A stretch of DNA of 64,000 nt, from positions 2,569 through 66,568 of the forward strand of contig CAMELV010000009.1 of assembly GCA_945925985.1 (NCBI GenBank), given 5' to 3'. Position 1 is the first letter of the stretch, and every line of letters starts with the position of its first letter. The DNA comes from Comamonas sp. lk. Its GTDB lineage: Bacteria; Pseudomonadota; Gammaproteobacteria; Burkholderiales; Burkholderiaceae_C. The notes under the pieces were generated by a model. It searched no databases, had not been told where the DNA came from, and worked only from the letters and a program-made list of their open reading frames with translations. The translations under genes were made by a program, and so were the position numbers. Positions 51,954-64,000 of the stretch are shown piece by piece.

Positions 51954-53330
51954 TCAGGGCTTCAGCGGGGTCGGCCAGCGCACAGTCACGGCCAGGCCAC
52001 CCAGCCGCTCGGAACGGCCAAGCTGCAGTTGGGCGCCAGTCGCCTGCGCAATGCGGCGCACGATCGACCAACCCAGGCCGCTGCCCGGCTGGGCCTGGCC
52101 GGCCACCCGGTAAAAGCGCTCGCCCAGGCGGGCCATTTCGGGCTCGCTCAGGCCAGCGCCGCTGTCTTCGACACTCAGCACAGTGTGGCCGGCCTCAGAG
52201 TCGATCTGCATCGTGATCTGCGCCCCCGTTGGGCTGTAGCGCAGGGCGTTGTCCAGCAGGTTGCGCAAGAGCACGCCGATCAGTACTTCGGGACCCGGCA
52301 CCAACGCGGCGCTGGCGGCGGCCAGCGCCAGGTCCTGCTGCCGAGCCAGGGCGGCTGGGGCCAGCTCTGCCGCTGTGCGCTGGGCGACAGCGCGCAAATC
52401 AACCGGACGCCCGGCGTCTGCGGCTGCAGCGCCACCTGGGTTCGCCTCCAGGCGGGCCAAGGTCAGCAGCTGATCGACCAGCCGGCTGGCCCGGTCGCAG
52501 CCGGCCAGCGTGGCCTGCAAGGCCCGCTCGCGTTGCGCGTGATCGCTGCCCGCCCCCTGCGCCACCTGCGCCTGGGCCCGGATGGCCGCGATCGGTGTGC
52601 CCAGCTCATGCGCGGCATCGGCCGTGAAGCGCTGCTCGGCAGACAGCATTTGATCAAGCCGCTGAAAAAGCCCGTTGAGTGCCTCCACCACCGGGTGAAT
52701 TTCCATTGGTAACTGGTCAAGCGGCAGCGGCGCCAGCGCCTGGGCCTGCCGGCCATCGCGGTCTTTCAATTGCCGGCTGAGCTGGCTCAACGGCTTTAAT
52801 TCGCGTCGTACTGCCCACCAGATCAGCAGCGCCAACAAGGGCAATGCAAACAGCGGCGGCAGCAGCACGCTGCGCAACACGGCTTGCAGGATGGCGCTGC
52901 GGGAGTCGTCCTGCTCGGCCACGTAAACCTGGACATCGTCGGCCGCCCCGCGGGTGGCAAACACCCGCCAGGTGCTGCCATCGTCCCGCTGGACGGTGCT
53001 GAAACCTGCGTTGATCGTCGCCAACGGTGTCGGGTCGACGTTGGGAGAACGCATCACCAACTGGCCCTCATGAAACACCTGGAATGCCACCTTGGGTGCG
53101 TATTTGTGCAGCATCGGCACATCGGCCACATCGTCGTCTTCGGCCCGGGTTTGCTGCACCACCAGCAGGGCGGCGGCCTGAGCCAGGTGGCTGTCGAGCA
53201 GCTCGTCAAGTTCATGGCGGGCGTCAATCCAGGTCATCAAGGCGGTGACCAGCCAAACGGCGCACAGCAGCGCCAGCAGCAGGCCAAGCAGGCGGGCCTG
53301 CAGCGAACGTGGGGCCTGCGGCCGGCTCAT
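51954..53330 (-). CDS. Sensor histidine kinase (QseC-like)
   Basis: The H-box is AAHELGTPIA, and an HATPase region is present (DNALRYS, DSGAGL, GSGLGWSI). Confidence 0.85.
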   Translation of the reverse strand: MSRPQAPRSLQARLLGLLLALLCAVWLVTALMTWIDARHELDELLDSHLAQAAALLVVQQTRAEDDDVADVPMLHKYAPKVAFQVFHEGQLVMRSPNVDPTPLATINAGFSTVQRDDGSTWRVFATRGAADDVQVYVAEQDDSRSAILQAVLRSVLLPPLFALPLLALLIWWAVRRELKPLSQLSRQLKDRDGRQAQALAPLPLDQLPMEIHPVVEALNGLFQRLDQMLSAEQRFTADAAHELGTPIAAIRAQAQVAQGAGSDHAQRERALQATLAGCDRASRLVDQLLTLARLEANPGGAAAADAGRPVDLRAVAQRTAAELAPAALARQQDLALAAASAALVPGPEVLIGVLLRNLLDNALRYSPTGAQITMQIDSEAGHTVLSVEDSGAGLSEPEMARLGERFYRVAGQAQPGSGLGWSIVRRIAQATGAQLQLGRSERLGGLAVTVRWPTPLKP

Positions 53331-53997
53331 ACTGGCGCAGCCTGGCGCGGCACCGTGTAGCCAACACCGCGAAGGTCTGGATCAGCTCTGGCTGCAGTTT
53401 GCGCCGCAGGTGGTGGATGTGCACCTCGATGGCGTTGCTGTCGAACTCGTGGCCCCAGCTGTAAAGCTGCTGCTCCAGCTGCTCGCGCGACAGCACCCGC
53501 CCGACATTGAGCATCAGCACCTGCAGCAGGTCAAATTCGCGGGTCGACAGGGGTACCGCTGCGCCATGTAGGCTGACCTGGCGCGCGGCCGGCTCCAGCA
53601 AGACGGGGCCCCAGCGCAATGTGTCTTGAAGTTGGCCGTGGGCGCGTCGGACCAAAGACCGCAGCCGGGCACCCAGCTCATGCAGGTCTACCGGTTTGAC
53701 CACGTAGTCGTCAGCGCCCAGGTCCAGGCCCCGAACTCGGTCTGGCACCGCGTCGCGCGCGGTCAGCACCAGGATGGGTGTGGCGATCTTGCGCTGGCGC
53801 AAAGCCCTCAACACGGCCAACCCGTCTTTCAGCGGCAACCCAAGATCGAGCACGGCCGCAGCGTAGTCGCCAGAACTCAGTTCCCGCTCGGCGGCCAGGC
53901 CGTCTTGCACCCAGTCCACTTGGAAACCCAGCTGGCGCAACCCGGCGCGCAGCCCGTCGCCCAGCAGGGGGTCGTCTTCAGCCAGCAGAATGCGCAT
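53327..53997 (-). CDS. OmpR-family response regulator with apparent 1-nt frameshift near its 3' end
   Basis: The receiver and wHTH domains are intact up to ...ELIQT. The conserved RGVGYTV...stop continues in another frame from ~53372. The ORF-track reading (53224..53997) runs into the kinase gene. Confidence 0.75.
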
Positions 53998-54017
53998 GGG
54001 GCAGTGCCAGCGGGGGG

Positions 54018-54707
54018 CTAATCGTCGTTGTCATGTGACGGGTATTTTGCGCTTCCGGTGCTGACCGGCCCGTCGATCGCCTCTGGGGCGCTTTGCCACT
54101 GCAGCCACCAATAAGCCAGCACAGCCAGCACCAACACCACTGCCACGCCGGTCCAGGCCCGTCTTATTCCGTCGGCTGGAACGCCATTTTTTTGGCCCGT
54201 CACCATGGCCCGCACCAGGTTCTCACGGTGCAGCAGGCTGGCGACCAGCACACCGGCAATGTGAACCGCCACCAGCAGCAGCATGGTGGTGCTGGCCACC
54301 TCGTGCAATTCGGACAGCCACTCGCCGCCCAGGTCGTTGTAGATGGCCCAGCCGCTGCCAACCACCGCCACGCTGGCCAGCAGCAGCAGCACGATGGCCA
54401 CGGCGCCGGCTGGGTTATGGCCCAGGTGGTGTTGCGCTTGGCCGTCGCGCAGGCTGCGCAAATAGGCCAGCACGGCTTGCGGTCCACGCACAAAACTGGC
54501 AAAGCGGGCGTAGCGGGTGCCGATCAGGCCCCACACCAGCCGAAACGCCACCAGGCCGCCCAAGGTGTAACCCAGCGTGACATGCAGCAGGCGCCAGCGT
54601 TCACTCTCGGCGCTCAGGTAGGCGCCCGCAAAACTGAGCACCAGCAGCCAGTGAAACACCCGCACGGGCGCATCCCACACTTTGATTTTTGTTGTGATGT
54701 TGTCCAT
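54018..54707 (-). CDS. Cytochrome b561-type membrane cytochrome b
   Basis: The VFHW..V motif, four TM helices and conserved His positions are present. Confidence 0.8.
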   Translation of the reverse strand: MDNITTKIKVWDAPVRVFHWLLVLSFAGAYLSAESERWRLLHVTLGYTLGGLVAFRLVWGLIGTRYARFASFVRGPQAVLAYLRSLRDGQAQHHLGHNPAGAVAIVLLLLASVAVVGSGWAIYNDLGGEWLSELHEVASTTMLLLVAVHIAGVLVASLLHRENLVRAMVTGQKNGVPADGIRRAWTGVAVVLVLAVLAYWWLQWQSAPEAIDGPVSTGSAKYPSHDNDD

Positions 54708-54712
54708 GGCGG

Positions 54713-55192
54713 CTATTTGGGGATCTTGATGTCGCGTTCATTGAAGCTGCCCTTGTCGGCCTGGGTGTGGCAGGCAGCACAGTTGGCCGGGCTGCCCACA
54801 GACGCGCGCTTCCAAACAGCCAGCGGCACTTCGCGCTCCTTGTGCTTGCTCAAGAACCAGCTGGAGCGGGTGATGCGGTCTTGCGGCGGCGCTTCGGTCA
54901 CCCGCTTGTAGGTGCCCGCGTGCTGGTTCAGCCAAGTGCTGATCTCGCGCGAGCTGGTTTCATCCAGCGAGGCGTCGGTACCGAAATGCTTGCCCAGGCC
55001 CCCCATCAAGCGCTGCCAGGAGGCCGCCGGCAGCATCCCAGGCGGGTAGGCGACGTGGCAGGCTGCACACTCCTGCTGGTATTTGGGCAGCAGCGGCACC
55101 GTTGCGGCGCGGTCATCGGCCTGGGCCAAGGGCCACAGCCCAAGCAGGGCCAGGCTGCCGATGGCGGCCTTGTCAAAAAAGTGATTGAACAT
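54713..55192 (-). CDS. Dihaem cytochrome c
   Basis: Two CxxCH sites (CAACH twice) and a signal peptide are present. Confidence 0.7.
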   Translation of the reverse strand: MFNHFFDKAAIGSLALLGLWPLAQADDRAATVPLLPKYQQECAACHVAYPPGMLPAASWQRLMGGLGKHFGTDASLDETSSREISTWLNQHAGTYKRVTEAPPQDRITRSSWFLSKHKEREVPLAVWKRASVGSPANCAACHTQADKGSFNERDIKIPK

Positions 55193-55251
55193 GAACGGTC
55201 TTTCTGTGAATGGGTGTTAAGGCGCCGACTGCGAGCACGAAGCGGCGGTAT

Positions 55252-55665
55252 TCAGGGCTTGAGCGTCATCAGCCAGGCCAGCACATCGGCCTTCTCAGCG
55301 GCGCTGCACTCGCGGCCCACCACGTCGTTGCAGTTGCGGCGAAACCATTTCTCGGTCTTGGCGCTGTCGGTGAATCGTTCTGAGTTAAAGCGTGGTGCCA
55401 GTGGCGCTATCAACTTGCCGGTACTGGCGTGTTTGCCCGGCCCGGTTGGGCTGGCTCCATGGCATGAGGCGCAACTCCAGTCCTTGCCTTGGCGGCTGTT
55501 AAAGAACTTCTGGCCGCGCGCGGCTTGTGCCGGCGCGCCGGCTTGCGCGGTGTAGGCGCTCAGTTGCTCGGCCGGCGTAAGGGCATGTGCGGGCTGCACG
55601 GTCAGGGCCGAACCGGCCATCGCCAACAGCCAAGCCCATTGAAAACCAGAGGGGACAGTCAACAT
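55252..55665 (-). CDS. DUF1924-type periplasmic c-type cytochrome-like protein
   Basis: A signal peptide, a single CASCH site and a conserved C-terminal Cys pair are present. Confidence 0.6.
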   Translation of the reverse strand: MLTVPSGFQWAWLLAMAGSALTVQPAHALTPAEQLSAYTAQAGAPAQAARGQKFFNSRQGKDWSCASCHGASPTGPGKHASTGKLIAPLAPRFNSERFTDSAKTEKWFRRNCNDVVGRECSAAEKADVLAWLMTLKP

Positions 55666-55815
55666 AGCATCTCCTTTGCCCTGATTTTGCGGAGCTCAGA
55701 TTAAGCTGGGCTTAAGGCAGAGCTCGGTTTGCTTTGCGTCAAACTAAGCTAGCAAAGGGCGACTTCGCCCGCCCATCCTGCTGAACAGGCGTGGTCGGCG
55801 CGGTCAGCGGGGGTA

Positions 55816-57183
55816 TCAGCCCAGTGAGCGCACCAGTTCCATCGCCTGCTCGACCCGCTCCACGGCGTGAACGGTCAGGCCCTCAATGGCCTTCTTGGGC
55901 GCATTGGCCTTGGGTACCAGCGCCACGCTGAAGCCCAGCTTGGCCGCCTCGCGCAGGCGTTCTTGGCCGCGTGGCGCAGGCCGCACCTCACCCGCCAGAC
56001 CCACTTCGCCAAAGGCAAAAAAACCTTTGGGCAGCGGTTTCCCGCGCAGGCTTGAGGTGATGGCCAGCAGCACGGCCAGGTCGGCTGCTGGCTCGCTGAT
56101 GCGCACGCCACCCACCGCGTTGACAAACACGTCCTGGTCCATGCAGGCCACGCCGGCATGGCGGTGCAGCACCGCCAGCAGCATGGCCAGCCGGTCGCGG
56201 TCAAGGCCCACCGACAGCCGGCGCGGCGACGGGCCCCCGCTGTCCACCAGGGCCTGGATCTCGACCAATAGCGGCCGCGTGCCTTCGAGCGTGACCATCA
56301 CGCAGCTGCCCGGCACCGGCTCGGCGTGCTGGCTCAAAAAAATGGCGCTCGGGTTGGACACGCCCTTGAGGCCTTTTTCGGTCATCGCAAACACGCCGAT
56401 CTCATTGACCGCGCCAAAGCGGTTCTTGATGGCCCGCACCAGCCGGAAACTGCTGTGGGTGTCGCCCTCAAAGTAGAGCACCGTGTCCACCATGTGCTCC
56501 AGCACGCGGGGGCCGGCCAGCGCGCCTTCTTTGGTCACGTGGCCTACCAGCACGATGCTCACGCCGCTGGCCTTGGCCGCGCGGGTCAGGTGGGCGGCAC
56601 ATTCGCGCACCTGGGCCACCGAGCCCGGGGCCGAGCTGAGCTGGTCGGAGTAGACGGTCTGGATCGAGTCGATGACCGCGATGTCGGGCCGTGTGCTCTC
56701 CAGCGTAGCCAGGATTTTTTCAAGCTGAATCTCGGCCAGCACCTTGACCTGCGAGCCGTCCAGCCCGAGCCGGTGCGCCCGCAGCGCCACCTGGGCGCCG
56801 CTTTCTTCGCCGGTCACATACAGGGTGTGCTGGCCACTGCGTTGCAGCGAGTCGAGCGCCTGCAGCAGCAGGGTGGATTTGCCGATGCCGGGGTCGCCGC
56901 CGATCAGCACCACGCCACCCTCGACCATGCCGCCACCCAGCACCCGGTCCAGTTCCTCGTGGCCGGTGGGGGTGCGCGCCATGTCCACGGCGTCGATCTC
57001 GCCCAGGGTGGCGATCTCGGCGGTTTTGGCCAGCGAGGCAAAGCGATTCTTGACGGCCGACGGGTTCTCGGCCACTGATTCAATCAGGGTGTTCCAAGCG
57101 TTGCAAGCCGGGCACTTGCCCAGCCATTTGGGGCTGTTACCCCCGCAGTCGCTGCACACATAAACCGTTTTTTCTTTGGCCAT
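55816..57183 (-). CDS. radA: DNA repair protein RadA
   Basis: MAKEKTVYVCSDCGGNSPKWLGKCPACNAWNT is the zinc finger. The P-loop is GGDPGIGKST, KNRFG is present, and a Lon-like C-terminus follows. Confidence 0.9.
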   Translation of the reverse strand: MAKEKTVYVCSDCGGNSPKWLGKCPACNAWNTLIESVAENPSAVKNRFASLAKTAEIATLGEIDAVDMARTPTGHEELDRVLGGGMVEGGVVLIGGDPGIGKSTLLLQALDSLQRSGQHTLYVTGEESGAQVALRAHRLGLDGSQVKVLAEIQLEKILATLESTRPDIAVIDSIQTVYSDQLSSAPGSVAQVRECAAHLTRAAKASGVSIVLVGHVTKEGALAGPRVLEHMVDTVLYFEGDTHSSFRLVRAIKNRFGAVNEIGVFAMTEKGLKGVSNPSAIFLSQHAEPVPGSCVMVTLEGTRPLLVEIQALVDSGGPSPRRLSVGLDRDRLAMLLAVLHRHAGVACMDQDVFVNAVGGVRISEPAADLAVLLAITSSLRGKPLPKGFFAFGEVGLAGEVRPAPRGQERLREAAKLGFSVALVPKANAPKKAIEGLTVHAVERVEQAMELVRSLG

Positions 57184-57324
57184 GGGCGCATGATACTGGA
57201 TGTAATTACAGATTTCATCGGTGATTCGTATGCTGCGACAGGTCCGCCAATGTGTCGGCCCATGTTGCAAGCGCCATGGTAGATCTATAAAATGTCTATC
57301 TTGACCTTTTATGTTGGACATTTC

Positions 57325-57645
57325 ATGAGCTGGAACATCGCCCAAGCCAAACAACAGTTCTCTGAAGTCGTGCGCCTGGCGGCCCAGGAGCCGCAAGCCA
57401 TTTACAACCGGGACAAGCCGGTCGCCGTGTTGATCAATGCAGACGATTTCGAGGCCTTTCGCCAGTGGCGCGCCGGACAACACGCCCCGACCCTGGCGGC
57501 GCAATTTGCAGAATCTAGGCTGGCCTTACAGCAAGCGGGTGCCGACGCACTGCAGATTCCCGCGCGAGGGGCTGTGCAACGCCCGAACGCCTTCGTGCAG
57601 ATGCTGGAATCAGAGCAACTGCCCAAACCCCCAGCCAACCCCTGA
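57325..57645 (+). CDS. Phd/YefM-family antitoxin
   Basis: MSWNIAQAKQQFSEVVR...PVAVLI..DDFE is the typical prevent-host-death N-terminus. Confidence 0.75.
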   Translation: MSWNIAQAKQQFSEVVRLAAQEPQAIYNRDKPVAVLINADDFEAFRQWRAGQHAPTLAAQFAESRLALQQAGADALQIPARGAVQRPNAFVQMLESEQLPKPPANP

Positions 57646-57654
57646 AAGCCTGCC

Positions 57655-58059
57655 ATGCAACTGGTGGACACCAACATCTTGAGCGAGCTAATGCGCGCCC
57701 AGCCTGACGCTGGCGTGATGGCCTGGCTCCACCGGCAAGAGCTCGTCAGCCCACGCCTCACCATCTCTGTAGTGACCGTGGATGAAATTATCTATGGCTT
57801 AAGTTGGCATCCAACCGCAAGGTTGTTAGCCTGGTTTGATGCCTTTGTGGAGCGGCACGAGGTCTTGCCGATCACAACCGATGTGGCCCGATGTGCCGGT
57901 GCCTTGCGCGGCCAACTGCAGTTGCGTGGCCAGACGCGATCCCAGGCTGACATGCTGATCGCTGCTACCGCTCAAATTCATGCCCTGACCATCGTCACGC
58001 GCAATGTGCGCGACTTTGATGGCTGTGGCGTGGCGGTCTTGAACCCGTTTGCCTACTAA
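57655..58059 (+). CDS. vapC: PIN-domain toxin VapC
   Basis: MQLVDTNILSEL...ADMLIAATA...TRNVRDF places all four acidic PIN positions. Confidence 0.85.
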   Translation: MQLVDTNILSELMRAQPDAGVMAWLHRQELVSPRLTISVVTVDEIIYGLSWHPTARLLAWFDAFVERHEVLPITTDVARCAGALRGQLQLRGQTRSQADMLIAATAQIHALTIVTRNVRDFDGCGVAVLNPFAY

Positions 58060-58082
58060 CTAGGGTTTAGGGTTGAAAGCGG

Positions 58083-59096
58083 CTAGATCGCCCTGCCGAT
58101 CTCGGTGATTTTGGCCAGCGGCAGCGGCAGACCTTCGGCGATGGCGACATGCTCGAGAGCGGTTTCAAACAGCATGCGCGCGGCACCCGCAACCTGCTGC
58201 AAATAAGCGTGCAATTTCGCGTCGGCAGCGCTCCTGTTGGCACATTCGCCGCTGTAGGTTTCAAAGTTGGAAACTTGGAGCAGCAACTGCGCCAGATGGC
58301 TGGGGCACTCACAAGCTACTGCGGACGACAACCCGGCAAATTCCGTCAAGGCAGCACCGTCAAACCGGGGTGACGATATGGTTGGGTCGGTCTTGCCCGC
58401 CGGTGCATTGGCAACTTGAAACGAAGCCAGCCACTGGCCCAAGGAATCGTCGTCTGAGGGCTCATGCAATAGGGCAACGCCAGAGCCAGTTAACTCTGCA
58501 CGCCCCTCAGCACTGCTGTAGCGGTAAACCACTGCTGTCGCACGGGCTCGACAGGCGTCTTGGGCAATGCGCAGTTCTTGCCGTGCGCCAGGCTGCAAAC
58601 TTGCCGCCTGCCACAGCAGCAGGTCGACAGCGGGCCTAGCCGAATTATCTGCGGCTTGCGTTGCTTCGGCCAAGGTATCAAACGCTGCCACGATCTGCAG
58701 CGCTGGCGCCCAGGGCTGGCGATCGCACAAGCGCTGCAGACGGCGTGCCAAGGCTTGACCCACCACGATAGCCCTCAATGCGGTTTGCCGCGGTGCTTCA
58801 GGTGGGTGCATCAGCTCGTGCAGTTGTGTGGTCTCCAGCGCCGCCAGCAAGCGAATGGCATGTCCCTGCTCTGTGAGCCGGCGCAGCAAGATGACGCGCT
58901 CAACATCTGCTGCCAAATACAGCCTGTGCCCAGACTCGGCGGTGGTGGGGCGGGTCGCCTGGTACCGCTGCTCCCAAATGCGCAAAGTCGCCACGGGCAT
59001 GCCTGCTAGGCGTGCAACTGCACCACTGCGAAAGGTCGGCCGAATCTGGTTGGTCTGCGGTGCAGGCGATTGAGAAGCAGGCTCAGAGAAAGTCAT
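58083..59096 (-). CDS. MerR-family regulator with ~220-aa C-terminal domain of unknown function (LitR-like by context)
   Basis: The MerR HTH reads AVARLAGMPVATLRIWEQRY. The C-terminal region carries CECPSH...C, and I could not find a B12-binding motif. Confidence 0.7.
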   Translation of the reverse strand: MTFSEPASQSPAPQTNQIRPTFRSGAVARLAGMPVATLRIWEQRYQATRPTTAESGHRLYLAADVERVILLRRLTEQGHAIRLLAALETTQLHELMHPPEAPRQTALRAIVVGQALARRLQRLCDRQPWAPALQIVAAFDTLAEATQAADNSARPAVDLLLWQAASLQPGARQELRIAQDACRARATAVVYRYSSAEGRAELTGSGVALLHEPSDDDSLGQWLASFQVANAPAGKTDPTISSPRFDGAALTEFAGLSSAVACECPSHLAQLLLQVSNFETYSGECANRSAADAKLHAYLQQVAGAARMLFETALEHVAIAEGLPLPLAKITEIGRAI

Positions 59097-59311
59097 TGTT
59101 CACAATTTGAGTTGTTAATGAGTTTGATTGTGACCCTGATCTTGGCAGTTTTGAGTTTGTAATTGGTGATTTTGAGTTAACATCAATTGCCAAAAATAAC
59201 TCGCTGCGCTGAAACCGGGCTTTTTTTGAATCGGCTGCCCCGACGCTTTGGTAACTGCAAGCTCCGGAGGCTTTACTGAAACTTACTGACCTGTTTTGAA
59301 ACGGAATTCCC

Positions 59312-59614
59312 ATGAACAACAATCGACGCACCTTCTTCATGACGCTGGCCGCTGGTGGCTCACTTTTGGCCACAAGGGCTCACGGCCAAGCCAAGGCTGA
59401 CGAGAAAGACCCTCAATCCGTGGCACTGGGCTATGTGGCTGATGCCACCAAGACCGACACCAAAAAGTACCCTAAGTACGCTGCCGGTCAAGTTTGTACA
59501 AACTGCGCCTTGTACCAAGGCAAGGCCAGCGATGCCTGGGGCGGTTGCCCATTGTTTGCCGGTAAGCAAGTTGCTGGCAAAGGCTGGTGCAGCGCCTACG
59601 CCAAGAAAGGCTGA
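59312..59614 (+). CDS. High-potential iron-sulfur protein (HiPIP)
   Basis: The Tat signal is NRRTFF. The Cys pattern is C..C...GGC...GWC. Confidence 0.85.
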   Translation: MNNNRRTFFMTLAAGGSLLATRAHGQAKADEKDPQSVALGYVADATKTDTKKYPKYAAGQVCTNCALYQGKASDAWGGCPLFAGKQVAGKGWCSAYAKKG

Positions 59615-60009
59615 TGCTTACTGACGCGGCTGTCACGCCTGCCTGGGTTTGGGCTGACCTCCGGACAGACCATGCTGGGGAGGCAGGCGCGGTCTGCATT
59701 TACAAAGGGGTGCTGCGATTTGCGCGCGACCCCGCGCTCCGAGTCTTTGCCCAGCACCACCTGGCCACCGAACAAAAGCACCTGCGACTGATCGAGGGCT
59801 GGTTACCTCCGGCGCAGTACAGCCGCTTGCTGCCATTGTGGCGACTGGCCGGGTTTCTAACCGGAGCCTTGCCTGCACTATTTGGGCCCAGGGCGGTCTA
59901 CGCAACGATCGAGGCGGTAGAGACCTTTGTCGACCACCACTACGAGCAACAGGTGTGCGCGCTGGCTTCACAGCCGCGCGCTGCGGTGGCCTTGATCCGC
60001 TACGTTTGA
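59614..60009 (+). CDS. Coq7-like di-iron hydroxylase family protein, short form (4th helix absent)
   Basis: RTDHAGEAGAVCIYKG, TEQKH and IEAVETFVDHHYEQQ match helices 1-3 of Coq7. The ORF stops before the second ExxH. The start ATG overlaps the HiPIP stop. Confidence 0.55.
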   Translation: MLTDAAVTPAWVWADLRTDHAGEAGAVCIYKGVLRFARDPALRVFAQHHLATEQKHLRLIEGWLPPAQYSRLLPLWRLAGFLTGALPALFGPRAVYATIEAVETFVDHHYEQQVCALASQPRAAVALIRYV

Positions 60010-60020
60010 GCGACAGACGC

Positions 60021-60782
60021 ATGACCGCCATCGCTGCCGAGATCGAACGCTTCAACCGCCTCAGCGCGACCTGGTGGGACAGCCGTGGGCCTATGCGGCC
60101 CTTGCACGTTATCAACGCATTAAGGCTTGACTACGTTGTCGAACAAGTCGCCTCGCATTTGGGCAGGGACACCGCTATCGCGCTGAACGGACTCCGAATT
60201 TTGGACGTTGGATGCGGCGGTGGCTTGATGTCGGAAGCGCTGGCACGCCTAGGTGCGCAGGTCGTGGGCGTGGACGCTTCGCGGGGTAATGTTGCCGCCG
60301 CTCGCCTGCACGCTCAATCGCAAAACGTCATGGTTGACTATCGGCTCGGCGAGCCCGCCGAGGTTCTGGCGCCAGAAGAACGTTTTGATGTGGTGCTGGC
60401 GCTTGAGGTGGTCGAGCACGTGAGCGACGTGCCCGCATTTTTGGGTTGTGCCGCTGCCCTTATGGCGCCAGGCAGCATACTGTTTGTCTCCACCATCGAC
60501 CGCACCTTCAAGAGCTTTGCGGTCGCTATTGTTGGAGCCGAATACCTGCTGCGAGTTTTGCCGCGAGGCACCCACCAGTGGTCGATGTTTGTACGTCCCG
60601 TGGAGTTGAGTTCAGCTTTAGCTCCTTCGCACTTACAGATACGAGATCTGCGCGGCATGCGCTATTTGCCAGTTGTGCACAAAGCCTCCTGGTGCAAGGA
60701 CACCAAGGTTAACTACATCGCCACCTTCACGCACACTGCCCATCTCAACGACGACCATTTAAAGCCACCATGCACCCTATAA
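60021..60782 (+). CDS. UbiG-like class I SAM-dependent O-methyltransferase
   Basis: WWDSRGPMRPLHVINALRLDY, LDVGCGGGLMSE, LEVVEHV and GAEYLLRVLPRGTH closely match the UbiG pattern. Confidence 0.8.
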   Translation: MTAIAAEIERFNRLSATWWDSRGPMRPLHVINALRLDYVVEQVASHLGRDTAIALNGLRILDVGCGGGLMSEALARLGAQVVGVDASRGNVAAARLHAQSQNVMVDYRLGEPAEVLAPEERFDVVLALEVVEHVSDVPAFLGCAAALMAPGSILFVSTIDRTFKSFAVAIVGAEYLLRVLPRGTHQWSMFVRPVELSSALAPSHLQIRDLRGMRYLPVVHKASWCKDTKVNYIATFTHTAHLNDDHLKPPCTL

Positions 60783-62329
60783 AACATCTGATTTTGGTGC
60801 TGGGAGACCAGCTCGACCTGCAGGCTGCGGCTTTTGATGGTTTTGACGCTGAGCAAGACGCCGTGTGGATGGCTGAAGCCCACGAAGAATCCACCCACGT
60901 CTGGTCAAGCAAGCAACGCATCGCCTTGTTTTTAAGCGCCATGCGTCACTTTGCCCAAGCGCTGCGCGATGCGGGCCGACCGCTGCACTACCACCGGATG
61001 GACGACACCAGCGCTGCTGCCTGTTTGGACAGCCTTGGGGCCAAGCTGCAGGTAGATCTGGCTAATTTGAAGCCGCAGCGTGTCGTGATGACCGCACCTG
61101 GCGACTGGCGCGTGTTCCAGCAACTCAAGGCCGTGGTCGAGGCTGCTGGCCTGACGCTTGAGGTCTGCGATGACCGCCATTTTTTCACCACGGTGCGCGA
61201 CTTTGCGGCCCATGCGAAGGGGCGCAAGTCCCTGCGCCTAGAGTACTTTTACCGCGAGCTACGGCAACGCCACAACATTCTGATGGACGACGGCAAGCCC
61301 GCCGGCGGCCAATGGAACTTTGACGCCGATAACCGCGAAGCCTTTGGCCCACAAGGCCCCGGACCGGTACCGGCGCGCGCGACCTTTCAACCGGACGCCC
61401 TCACGCAAGACGTCATTGCACTGGTTAACACCCGCTTTGCCGACCATCCCGGCACACTCGACAGCTTTGCTTGGCCAGTCACCCGCAGCCAGGCCTTGCA
61501 GACGCTGCAGCGCTTTGTTGACGAGCGCCTGCCGCTGTTCGGCCGTTACGAAGACGCTTTGTGGCCTGGCGAGCCCTGGCTCTACCACTCTCACCTGTCG
61601 TCCGCCATGAACCTCAAACTGCTGAGCGCGCACGAGGTGGTGCAGGCTGTGGAAGCGGCTTACCGGGCGGGACAAGCGCCGCTGCAAAGCGCCGAGGGCT
61701 TCATACGCCAGATACTGGGGTGGCGCGAGTACGTGCGCGGCATTTACTGGACGCAGATGCCCAGTTACGTCGAGCTCAACGCCTTGGACGCGCAGGAAGA
61801 CCTGCCAGCCTGGTTTTGGACCGGCCACACCGACATGGCCTGCTTGCGCGATGCCATCACCCAGACCCTGGAACATGGCTACGCCCACCACATCCAGCGC
61901 CTGATGGTGACCGGCCTATATGCCCTTTTGTTCGGCGTGCGTCCACAGAAGGTTCATGCCTGGTACCTGTCGGTCTATGTCGACGCGGTCGAGTGGGTCG
62001 AGCTTCCCAACACCCTGGGCATGAGCCAGTACGGCGACGGCGGGCTCATGGCAAGCAAGCCTTACGTGGCCACGGGCAAGTACATCCAGCGCATGGGTGG
62101 GCCTTGCAAAGGTTGCCGTTATGACCCGGCGCTGCGCGAGGGTGAACGCGCCTGCCCCTACACGACGCTGTATTGGGACTTTTTGATGCGGCACGAAGCA
62201 CTGCTGGCCAAGAACGCACGAATGGCTTTGCAGGTCAAAAACGTGGCTCGCATGACGCAAAGCCAAAAGGACGCCGTGACACTGCGGGCTGATGCGATCC
62301 GCCGGGGCGAGGTTGGCGTAGTCCAATGA
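60770..62329 (+). CDS. Cryptochrome/photolyase family protein of the FeS-BCP (PhrB/CryB-like, COG3046) type
   Basis: The N-terminus LILVLGDQL, the LGWREY region and a C-terminal Cys cluster (CKGC...C) are present. Confidence 0.8.
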   Translation: MHPIKHLILVLGDQLDLQAAAFDGFDAEQDAVWMAEAHEESTHVWSSKQRIALFLSAMRHFAQALRDAGRPLHYHRMDDTSAAACLDSLGAKLQVDLANLKPQRVVMTAPGDWRVFQQLKAVVEAAGLTLEVCDDRHFFTTVRDFAAHAKGRKSLRLEYFYRELRQRHNILMDDGKPAGGQWNFDADNREAFGPQGPGPVPARATFQPDALTQDVIALVNTRFADHPGTLDSFAWPVTRSQALQTLQRFVDERLPLFGRYEDALWPGEPWLYHSHLSSAMNLKLLSAHEVVQAVEAAYRAGQAPLQSAEGFIRQILGWREYVRGIYWTQMPSYVELNALDAQEDLPAWFWTGHTDMACLRDAITQTLEHGYAHHIQRLMVTGLYALLFGVRPQKVHAWYLSVYVDAVEWVELPNTLGMSQYGDGGLMASKPYVATGKYIQRMGGPCKGCRYDPALREGERACPYTTLYWDFLMRHEALLAKNARMALQVKNVARMTQSQKDAVTLRADAIRRGEVGVVQ

Positions 62330-63543
62330 CGATGCTTGATACGTTCCCGCCCACGCGCCAAGCTGCTCTGGCGCGCGTCGGTGCAGTGCGACCGAGCGAC
62401 TATGCGCGCAGCCGTAACGCCATTGAGGGCGCGGTCACGGGCCTATCGCCCTACATCACGCACGGGCTGGTCAGCCTGCCCGAGGTTCTGGCCGGTGTGA
62501 CCGTCAAGCACCCGCTCGATGTGCAGCACAAGTTCGTTTTTGAGCTGGGCTGGCGCGAATACTTTCGCCATGTCTGGGCGTTCCGGGGCGAAGAGATTTT
62601 TGAATCCCTGCGCGAGGGGATGCTCCCAGAAGCCTGCTACGCCAATACGCTGCCTGCCGACATTCGCCAGGCTGCCACCGGCCTGCCCGTTATCGACATG
62701 GCGGTGCGCACCCTGTACGCCACGGGCTATTTGCACAACCATGCCCGCATGTGGCTGGCCAGCTATGTCGTGCATGTGCGCAAGGTGCGCTGGCGGGTCG
62801 CAGCGGACTGGCTGTACGGCCACCTGCTTGACGGCGATCTGGCCAGCAACCACCTCAGCTGGCAATGGGTGGCTGGCACCGGCAGCAGCAAGCCCTACCT
62901 TTTTAATGCAGATAACGTTGCCCGCTACGCCCCAGCCTCCTGGCACAGCCCGGGCAGTGTGATCGACCAGTCCTATGAAGCTTTGGACCGTCTCGCCCGC
63001 CAGCCCGCGCGCGGCGGCCGTGCTCAGCACGAAGCGCCCTTAGCTTTAACCGATCTGGTCGAGCCGCCCCTGTGCACGGTGCCACCACCGGATCTTGACT
63101 TGGCCTCGCCCGACCCGGCGGCGGTGGCGGGCCGTGAGGTTTGGTTGGTGCACCCCTGGAACCTTGGTGAGTTGCCCGCTTCGCTGCCTGCTGACACGGT
63201 GGTGGTGGGAGTTTTTCTCAGCGACTTTCACCGCGCCTGGCCCTGGAGCGAACGACGCTGGCGTTTTGTCGAAAGCCGAATGGCTGAACTTGCCACGCTG
63301 CGATGGCATGGTGATGCGGCGGCCATTGCAGCGGCGCTCAAGGGCGCCCGTCAGGTGTACAGCGTGGATGAGCCGCATCTCCAGCCGTGGCTGGCTAGCT
63401 TGGCAAGCTGTTCGGCGTCGCCCGCGCTGTTTCCGGCACTCAGCAGGCGTTGTGACTCCTTTAGCCAGTGGTGGACACGTGCCGCTAAGGGCATGACCTC
63501 AGCCGCTGACTTGCTGGCCGCCCGACCAGCCCCCTCATGGTGA
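62326..63543 (+). CDS. Photolyase homologue with the FAD-binding domain first and an alpha/beta-like domain last
   Basis: Residues 1-235 carry photolyase FAD-domain motifs (LSPYITHG, ELGWREYF, HNHARMWLASY, LLDGDLASNHLSWQWVAGTG). See the findings for the C-terminal part. Confidence 0.7.
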   Translation: MTMLDTFPPTRQAALARVGAVRPSDYARSRNAIEGAVTGLSPYITHGLVSLPEVLAGVTVKHPLDVQHKFVFELGWREYFRHVWAFRGEEIFESLREGMLPEACYANTLPADIRQAATGLPVIDMAVRTLYATGYLHNHARMWLASYVVHVRKVRWRVAADWLYGHLLDGDLASNHLSWQWVAGTGSSKPYLFNADNVARYAPASWHSPGSVIDQSYEALDRLARQPARGGRAQHEAPLALTDLVEPPLCTVPPPDLDLASPDPAAVAGREVWLVHPWNLGELPASLPADTVVVGVFLSDFHRAWPWSERRWRFVESRMAELATLRWHGDAAAIAAALKGARQVYSVDEPHLQPWLASLASCSASPALFPALSRRCDSFSQWWTRAAKGMTSAADLLAARPAPSW

Positions 63544-63977
63544 GCCTACGAAATATGATCGATGCGAACCAGACTGAAATAAACCAGTCCGAAACAAACC
63601 AGTGCGCGCCGGCGTTGACCGTTCTTTACGACGGCGCTTGCCCGTTGTGCCGGCGCGAAATAGGCGTCTACCGCGACCTGCAACCGTTGCAGCCCGGCTC
63701 GTCCGTGTGCTTTGCCGACGTGAGTAACACAGCACTGACGCTACCTGCTGGTACCACCCGGGAGCAGTTGCTGGCGCGCTTTCATGTGATGGACCGCGAT
63801 GGTCAACTGATCAGCGGCGCGCAGGCTTTCTTGGCCTTATGGGCAGCCCTGCCTGGCTGGCGCTGGCTGGCCTTGGCGGGACGCCTACCGGGCGCTAGCT
63901 GGGTCTTGGAGCGGATGTACCGCCTTTTTCTAAAACTGCGGCCGACGCTGCAGCGCTGGGCCTCACGTCTCGACTAA
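63537..63977 (+). CDS. DCC-family thiol-disulfide oxidoreductase (DUF393)
   Basis: VLYDGACPLCRREI is the DCC motif. The start overlaps the upstream stop. Confidence 0.75.
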   Translation: MVSLRNMIDANQTEINQSETNQCAPALTVLYDGACPLCRREIGVYRDLQPLQPGSSVCFADVSNTALTLPAGTTREQLLARFHVMDRDGQLISGAQAFLALWAALPGWRWLALAGRLPGASWVLERMYRLFLKLRPTLQRWASRLD

Positions 63978-64000
63978 GTCGCGACAACAAGGCCCGCGTC

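Follow-up and report, generated by a model that had tools for sequence, protein, structure and literature searches.

Among the regulators of the LitR group, those of class III are Burkholderia-type proteins that lack a recognisable C-terminal domain and show a light-dependent spectral change (PMC9758184, summarising Sumi et al. 2018), and the light-inducible regulons of classes II and III comprise genes for photolyase, folE and CFA/furan fatty-acid synthase (PMC9758184). On the side of DNA repair, the closest described proteins are PhrB of Agrobacterium, whose cluster cysteines are numbered C350, C438, C441 and C454 (PMC8476157), CryB of Rhodobacter sphaeroides, and the short photolyase-like (SPL) proteins, a class defined by Xu et al. 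in 2021. SPLs lack an antenna-binding domain, and their subgroup Be, which includes a Comamonadaceae member from Curvibacter, also lacks the four cysteines; repair of cyclobutane pyrimidine dimers (CPDs) has been shown for RfSPL only, an actinobacterial, cluster-containing SPL (PMC8476157). On the side of quinone synthesis, Coq7 is reported to be single-copy in Pseudomonadota, Betaproteobacteria having mainly UbiH, UbiI and Coq7 (PMC10597321). Here we describe a locus of Comamonas sp. lk in which a LitR-like MerR gene stands divergent from six genes, encoding a HiPIP, a Coq7-like hydroxylase, a UbiG-type methyltransferase, an FeS-BCP photolyase, an SPL protein and a DCC (DUF393) protein. It lies in a 64,000-nucleotide stretch of contig CAMELV010000009.1 (positions 2,569 to 66,568 of the forward strand), the whole of which is referred to as the window.

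The reading that we favour, at a probability of roughly 0.55, is that the locus is a LitR-controlled photoprotection operon of freshwater Comamonadaceae, combining DNA photorepair with a quinone/redox branch. The first-pass annotation, made from the letters alone, had proposed a candidate light-responsive module; the conserved unit, the LitR-like regulator and the identities of the photolyases withstood the analysis, and the hard-wiring of its genes, the short form of Coq7 and the pairing of DCC with photolyases did not. The new element is the LitR-linked Coq7-like/DCC pair and not the short Coq7, a lesion at strain level. That annotation knew of no described system of this composition, and in line with this our literature search turned up no paper in which Coq7 and DUF393/DCC are mentioned together.

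A conserved but eroding gene cluster

The region contains seven open reading frames, one on the minus strand and six on the plus strand, each backed by Pfam or NCBIfam matches (Table 1), so that the tightly coupled unit and its divergent MerR gene were found again as first annotated. Four of the five junctions were likewise recovered: TGATG between HiPIP and the Coq7-like gene (59612-59616), an 11-nt gap before UbiG (60010-60020), a 13-nt overlap of UbiG and FeS-BCP (60770-60782), and ATGA between FeS-BCP and SPL (62326-62329). The fifth, an ATGGTGA overlap of SPL and DCC at 63537, is conditional on where DCC is taken to start; on the source contig, a metagenome contig of 120 kb, the gene caller sets this start at 63555, and the alignment with relatives begins at DCC residue 8-9, so the downstream start is favoured and the junction would become an 11-nt gap instead of an overlap. 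The operon ends with DCC, since a convergent fasciclin gene comes directly beyond it on that contig. An Rfam search of 57000-64000 matched no family.

Table 1. Features of the locus (window coordinates) and of the oxidoreductase that follows related fusion genes (coordinates of the respective loci)
Feature	Position	Strand	Evidence or comment
MerR regulator, class III LitR-like, 337 aa	58083-59096	-	MerR_1 PF13411 42.1 bits and PF00376 28.6 bits, residues 22-82
Divergent control region, 215 bp	59097-59311	.	Candidate operator and promoter; TGAGTT cluster
HiPIP	59312-59614	+	PF01355 95.8 bits, 66/66 positions
Coq7-like di-iron hydroxylase gene, 131 aa	59614-60009	+	PF03232 103 bits
UbiG-type O-methyltransferase	60021-60782	+	TIGR01983 269.5 bits vs cut-off 102.95; positions 1-228/228
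FeS-BCP / prokaryotic (6-4) photolyase, PhrB type, 519 aa	60770-62329	+	PF04244 257.7 bits (DPRP-type N-terminal domain)
Short photolyase-like (SPL) protein, 405 aa	62326-63543	+	Sole Pfam domain FAD_binding_7, residues 70-197
DCC1-like (DUF393) thioredoxin-fold protein, CPLC motif	63537-63977 (start likelier ATG 63555)	+	PF04134 87.6 bits, 112/113 positions
FAD/amine-oxidase-like oxidoreductase after DCC::Coq7 fusion	L034 8676-9791; L039 7223-8293; L057 6995-8080; L058 7074-8222; L059 6953-8008		

To follow the locus across relatives, one genome per species (185,579 in all) was scanned for exact matches to two short peptide motifs. Relatives of the Coq7-like gene were confirmed at 43 species-level loci, chiefly of freshwater Rhodoferax, Limnohabitans, Polaromonas and other Comamonadaceae, and the seven window proteins were mapped onto these loci. 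A MerR gene divergent from the HiPIP-Coq7-like pair occurs in about 20 loci of freshwater Comamonadaceae; the full six-gene order is found in L005, L007, L022 and L026, and is consistent with what remains of L010 and L011, both cut by contig ends. The same order therefore recurs in many species-level genomes, so that its assembly here is not due to chance, the alternative that the first annotation had proposed to check by co-occurrence. Ratios of nonsynonymous to synonymous substitution (dN/dS) for the operon genes against relatives range from 0.05 to 0.3, and the gene order is, judging from these comparisons, inherited and under purifying selection.

Within this order, single genes have been lost repeatedly. 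Only a C-terminal remnant of FeS-BCP is left in L009, L014, L017 and L032, SPL is missing from L018 and from L016, where Limnohabitans sp. Rim28 has HiPIP, Coq7-like, UbiG, FeS-BCP and DCC genes divergent from MerR, and both UbiG and FeS-BCP are missing from L019 and L028. UbiG is absent or a remnant in five loci (L006, L019, L027, L028 and L033), being a remnant in L006 and L033, and in L027 only the Coq7-like gene and DCC come after HiPIP. By contrast, HiPIP, the Coq7-like gene and DCC are kept where FeS-BCP has been lost (L019, L027, L028, L030, L047) or where both photolyases have (L027, L047). The claim that quinone and HiPIP genes are hard-wired in front of the photolyases was thus too strong, UbiG, FeS-BCP and SPL each being missing or a remnant in some relatives. 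On the sequence comparisons, the persistent core is MerR, HiPIP, the Coq7-like gene and DCC, and the operon is a mosaic that is decaying in this strain. Against its closest relative, L005, synonymous divergence (dS) is 0.013 for UbiG, 0.036 for FeS-BCP and 0.40 for DCC, a spread of about 30-fold from gene to gene, and this unevenness suggests recombination within the operon.

The control region between MerR and HiPIP carries TGAGTT sites at 59108, 59119, 59152 and 59173, spaced by 11, 33 and 21 bp, together with a conserved TAnnAT (59178-59183) and an inverted AACTC (59199-59203); its repeat families are spaced by 21, 33 and 44 bp. The exact heptamer TTGAGTT occurs three times inside 72 bp of the region and 11 times in the whole window, where 3.7 occurrences are expected. 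These motifs are kept across an alignment of 20 intergenic regions, and the TGAGTT repeats are candidate operators for the MerR regulator. The sole plus-strand sigma-70 match overlaps the HiPIP start codon and was dismissed as a promoter. About 1 kb downstream of the operon, the source contig carries an amine-oxidase-like gene (514 aa; L001 15169-16713), upstream of which no TTGAGTT site was present.

The regulator and the two photolyases

The MerR regulator has 901 homologues, some of which are named “light-induced transcriptional regulator” by JGI. Its relatives in Burkholderia anthina, B. arboris, Caballeronia and Ralstonia are 36-40% identical over 90-94% of the length, and their genes sit among those for photolyase, folE (GTP cyclohydrolase I) and CFA-synthase-family proteins, in clusters that also hold SDR, DUF1365/1295/2878 and extracytoplasmic function (ECF) sigma genes. 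This light-type gene set matches the light-inducible LitR class II and III regulons. No B12-binding or B12-binding_2 match was obtained for the whole protein, or at E<=10 for its C-terminal 235 or 105 residues, and a Pfam search with the C-terminal region at E<=10 returned noise only. The region nevertheless carries a motif, ACECPxH..FExYSxxC..R..DAxLH, that is invariant among homologues even at 28-40% identity. An AlphaFold2 model (pLDDT 69.6) comprises a helix-turn-helix, a five-stranded receiver/Rossmann-like alpha/beta domain and a helical C-terminal domain, and its best fold matches in the Protein Data Bank are CarH structures.

The regulator is thus best described as class III LitR-like, because of its full-length homologues in light-inducible clusters and the invariant CECPxH...C...LH motif common to them, the proteins compared being those of B. 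anthina, B. arboris, Caballeronia and Ralstonia. This bears out the earlier reading of a LitR-like protein that has CECPSH...C in place of a B12 motif. Like class III LitR of Burkholderia and class II LitR of Pseudomonas, it is a MerR protein free of a B12 domain, encoded divergently from presumed targets that include photolyases, and it shares with the Burkholderia, Ralstonia and Caballeronia proteins both the overall identity and the C-terminal motif, its fold being nearest to CarH. It differs in its cargo and host: folE, the CFA/furan fatty-acid synthase, SDR, DUF1365/1295/2878 and ECF sigma genes are absent from the operon, which instead carries HiPIP, Coq7-like, UbiG, SPL and DCC genes in freshwater Comamonadaceae. 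Light sensing and light-dependent DNA binding by the regulator would follow from this homology. A second, more distant MerR homologue (35% identity) lies after the operon in a Polaromonas metagenome-assembled genome (MAG; L019 10260-13350), together with SDR, DoxX and Rrf2 regulator genes, and a DoxX gene also comes after Coq7-DCC in L012.

Both photolyase assignments of the first annotation hold. The FeS-BCP protein aligns over residues 6-510 with PhrB (4DJA/5KCM) at 502 bits and with 3ZXS at 474 bits, and its MACL, CKGC and ACPY segments align with PhrB C350, C438, C441 and C454, so that all four cluster cysteines are kept. In domain layout it resembles PhrB and CryB, and in itself it is unremarkable; what sets it apart is a hitherto undescribed operon context with a HiPIP and quinone enzymes.

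In the second photolyase the N-terminal alpha/beta antenna domain is gone, and residues 10-199 align with the C-terminal half of class I CPD photolyases, at residues ~208-411 of those enzymes. We compared the FAD and substrate residues of class I enzymes (E. coli numbering E274, W277, N341, R344, M345, D372, A377, N378, G381, W382 and W384); nine of the eleven are retained (in ELGWRE, HNHARM and DGDLASNHLSWQW), the positions of A377 and G381 being Ser. With these residues conserved, without the alpha/beta domain and the four-cysteine set, and with a long C-terminal extension, the protein is an SPL that fits subgroup Be; it differs from RfSPL, which holds a cluster and has proven CPD repair. 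The extension of about 185 aa (window 62986-63540; VWLVHPWNLG...FHRAWPWSERRWRF...RRCDSFSQWW) is strongly conserved in 16 sequences and had no Pfam match at E<=10. A permuted photolyase alpha/beta domain was ruled out as its origin, hhalign against the FeS-BCP N-terminal domain giving a probability of 0.06. From family function, FeS-BCP and SPL together would cover both main UV lesions.

A Coq7-like enzyme and its probable DCC partner

The Coq7-like protein had been read as a Coq7-type hydroxylase lacking its last helix. In fact it retains the last ~10 residues and the loss is internal: the closest homologues (80-91% identity) have 178-208 aa, and the difference is one internal 47-aa gap. At the DNA level this is an in-frame 141-bp deletion between two 10-bp direct repeats, copies of GCGCGCTGCG, with the junction within the repeat at 59976-59985, and it bears the signature of slippage. 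The short form was hence ruled out as a family trait and is a lineage-specific lesion, not a designed variant. In an alignment with human COQ7 (7SSP), the lost segment (…CQADEVAHRDEA…; DEVAHRDE) falls on the second EXXH di-iron motif, and full-length relatives retain all six di-iron ligands; the window protein lacks the complete ligand set (E, EXXH, E, EXXH). Since the deletion took the second EXXH iron-binding motif, the hydroxylase step is probably lost and the enzyme inactive in this strain, in keeping with the gene-by-gene losses in relatives. The deleted allele is real, as it recurs in an identical protein on five contigs from four samples and in the related MAG L005, which carries the same deletion.

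Against the NCBIfam Coq7 equivalog NF033656 (cut-off 180 bits), the window protein scores 34.5 bits and full-length relatives score 37-58 bits, all below the threshold. The clade thus shares with Coq7/CLK-1 demethoxyubiquinone hydroxylases the COQ7 Pfam domain, the six di-iron ligands of its full-length members and, in the window, a neighbouring UbiG that matches the next pathway step; it differs in being divergent, often fused to DCC and linked to a LitR-like regulator, and the window copy differs further in its missing second EXXH motif. Because it is so sparse (a confirmed relative in 43 of 185,579 species genomes in the scan for exact matches to two motifs), we take the clade to be an accessory paralogue that is unlikely to serve as the general C6-hydroxylase of these ubiquinone-using genera.

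The connection with DCC extends beyond the operon. In five more distant Burkholderiales loci (L034, L035, L038, L039, L040), DCC and Coq7-like domains are fused in a single open reading frame, and the DCC::Coq7 architecture, with both Pfam domains, occurs in at least 120 protein clusters. A model of the fusion (pLDDT 93.5, pTM 0.79) has a COQ7 fold with a TM-score of 0.82 to human COQ7. The window DCC, which carries a CxxC motif (YDGACPLC), shares 39-46% identity with the fused DCC domain. A divergent gene of the same MerR type accompanies seven of the 11 fusion loci examined; in five of these seven, an FAD/amine-oxidase-like oxidoreductase gene (~350-380 aa; Table 1) comes directly after the fusion, and in three (L040, L057, L039) a photolyase or SPL gene lies nearby. 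A tblastn search of plasmids with the fusion returned almost solely stand-alone DUF393 genes of Alphaproteobacteria, and three unrelated plasmid contexts of DUF393 (two alphaproteobacterial, one from Allochromatium) contained no photolyase nearby. DCC is therefore better viewed as the partner of the Coq7-like enzyme than of photolyases, the companions first assigned to it as a frequent association.

The HiPIP carries an N-terminal twin-arginine motif (MNNNRRTFF) and the four cluster cysteines (C-x2-C...C...C), and is predicted to be periplasmic. Its counterparts in about 20 related loci share 83-100% identity, and in every case their genes immediately precede the Coq7-like gene. Its direct partnership with a photolyase, doubted from the outset, was rejected, since the protein is exported and is kept in loci without FeS-BCP.

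Proposed light control, competing explanations and meaning

In the favoured reading of a LitR-controlled photoprotection operon, the regulator would bind the TGAGTT repeats over the shared promoter region and light would relieve its control, as described for LitR classes I-III. The DNA-repair branch would consist of FeS-BCP for (6-4) photoproducts and SPL for cyclobutane dimers, as their strong homology implies. The redox/quinone branch would consist of the Coq7-like di-iron hydroxylase, its thioredoxin-fold partner DCC, an extra UbiG and the exported HiPIP: supported by DCC, the Coq7-like enzyme would hydroxylate a quinone, and UbiG would then methylate the new hydroxyl, these being consecutive steps of ubiquinone synthesis. 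In E. coli, exposure to near-UV or pulsed light degrades ubiquinone-8 (UQ-8) and menaquinone-8 (MK-8) (PMC7916761), and for this reason the quinone branch may be tied to light; our best guess is that, under illumination, it replenishes or restores both the ubiquinone pool and periplasmic electron transfer. More tentatively, and in our view improbably, the Coq7-like/DCC pair might be a self-contained and hitherto unrecognised di-iron quinone hydroxylase system of class III LitR light regulons, which together with the extra UbiG would rebuild or repair near-UV-damaged ubiquinone, HiPIP aiding periplasmic electron flow. The bacterial light response would then include a “quinone photodamage” branch alongside DNA photorepair.

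Several points weigh against a photoprotection operon of this kind. Light control is deduced from homology and context. In the conserved repeat region, no convincing promoter emerged from a simple sigma-70 scan, and the 21-nt spacing from TTGAGT to TAACAT is compatible with either repression or MerR-style activation. The light clusters of Burkholderia and Ralstonia have neither Coq7-like nor DCC genes; four of the 11 fusion loci (L035, L051, L052, L053) have neither a MerR gene nor a photolyase; and in Limnohabitans sp. MMS-10A-178 (L020 9411-9842) the Coq7-like gene is solitary, with MerR, HiPIP and DCC all absent. From these standalone fusions and solitary relatives it follows that the Coq7-like/DCC pair is not strictly light-linked. 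Besides, HiPIP would be periplasmic and all other operon products cytoplasmic, which makes its role a guess, and the sparse distribution and gene loss are what suggest that UbiG and the Coq7-like gene are extra copies. Finally, a dN/dS of 0.25, computed from no more than 23 substitutions between the two deleted Coq7-like alleles, does not show decay.

Of the alternatives, the one that survives best, although we regard it as unlikely, is that the regulator senses redox or photo-oxidative stress, its Cys/His motif holding a metal or an Fe-S cluster as in SoxR-type MerR proteins, with the photolyases riding along. A helical C-terminal domain that bears the invariant CxCPxH...C...H motif and has no known fold match would suit such a sensor, as would the redox-rich cargo of HiPIP, DCC, the Coq7-like protein and, in relatives, the FAD oxidoreductase, and class III LitR has no assigned chromophore (PMC9758184). 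However, a class III LitR protein is reported to shift its spectrum in light (PMC9758184), the homologues sit in clusters that match class II/III light regulons with photolyase, folE and CFA/furan fatty-acid synthase, and photolyases are useful only in light.

Somewhat less probable again is that the quinone genes are ordinary or redundant ubiquinone-biosynthesis genes that share a transcript with the photolyases and are kept by local inheritance and recombination in one family. UbiG does score as a true UbiG, JGI calls the Coq7-like proteins 3-demethoxyubiquinol 3-hydroxylase, close Coq7-like relatives are found in unrelated contexts, and the module erodes freely, to the point that a crippled Coq7-like gene is tolerated in this strain. 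Against this stand the distance of the clade from the equivalog cut-off, its sparseness in the two-motif scan, the single-copy status reported for Coq7 in Pseudomonadota (PMC10597321), and the pairing with the same MerR type, which recurs in distant Burkholderiales as DCC::Coq7 fusions.

That the other genes serve the photolyases, with HiPIP re-reducing the FeS-BCP [4Fe-4S] cluster and the Coq7-like protein and UbiG making an antenna or cofactor, is very improbable: the translational coupling of the genes and an FeS-BCP cluster that cycles 2+/3+ at about 0.3 V, HiPIP-like and with no assigned function (PMC12082625), speak for it, but the HiPIP has a twin-arginine export signal, HiPIP, Coq7-like and DCC genes outlast FeS-BCP or both photolyases in several loci, DCC::Coq7 fusions often have no photolyase nearby, and SPLs lack an antenna-binding domain.

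Should the photoprotection reading be true, LitR regulons would reach past carotenoids, folate, fatty-acid modification and photolyases to components of the respiratory chain. Work on ubiquinone biosynthesis would also gain a second, DCC-linked Coq7 subfamily as a candidate for study, beside an enzyme currently held to be single-copy with a conserved role. For the DCC/DUF393 family, the recurrent fusion with a Coq7-type enzyme provides a first functional handle, and the invariant CxCPxH...C...H motif offers a concrete target for the light-sensing mechanism of class III LitR. The lesson of the window itself is modest, being that of a decaying mosaic operon whose Coq7-like gene is probably dead.

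Some neighbouring genes complete the description. The fasciclin-domain gene that adjoins the operon just past the window end (L001 14391-14846) has counterparts beside the photolyase gene of the Burkholderia anthina light cluster and, in Microvirga, close to a DUF393 gene (L048 13743-14327; L056 3147-3641), and genes of this kind may recur next to those of light clusters. About 1 kb downstream of the solitary Coq7-like gene of L020 lies a BLUF blue-light sensor gene. On the other side of the locus, a Phd/YefM antitoxin and PIN (VapC) toxin pair occupies 57292-58059, between radA and the MerR gene, and upstream of radA, on the minus strand at ~52000-55700, are genes for a two-component system, a cytochrome b (Ni_hydr_CYTB), a dihaem cytochrome c (DHC) and a DUF1924 protein.

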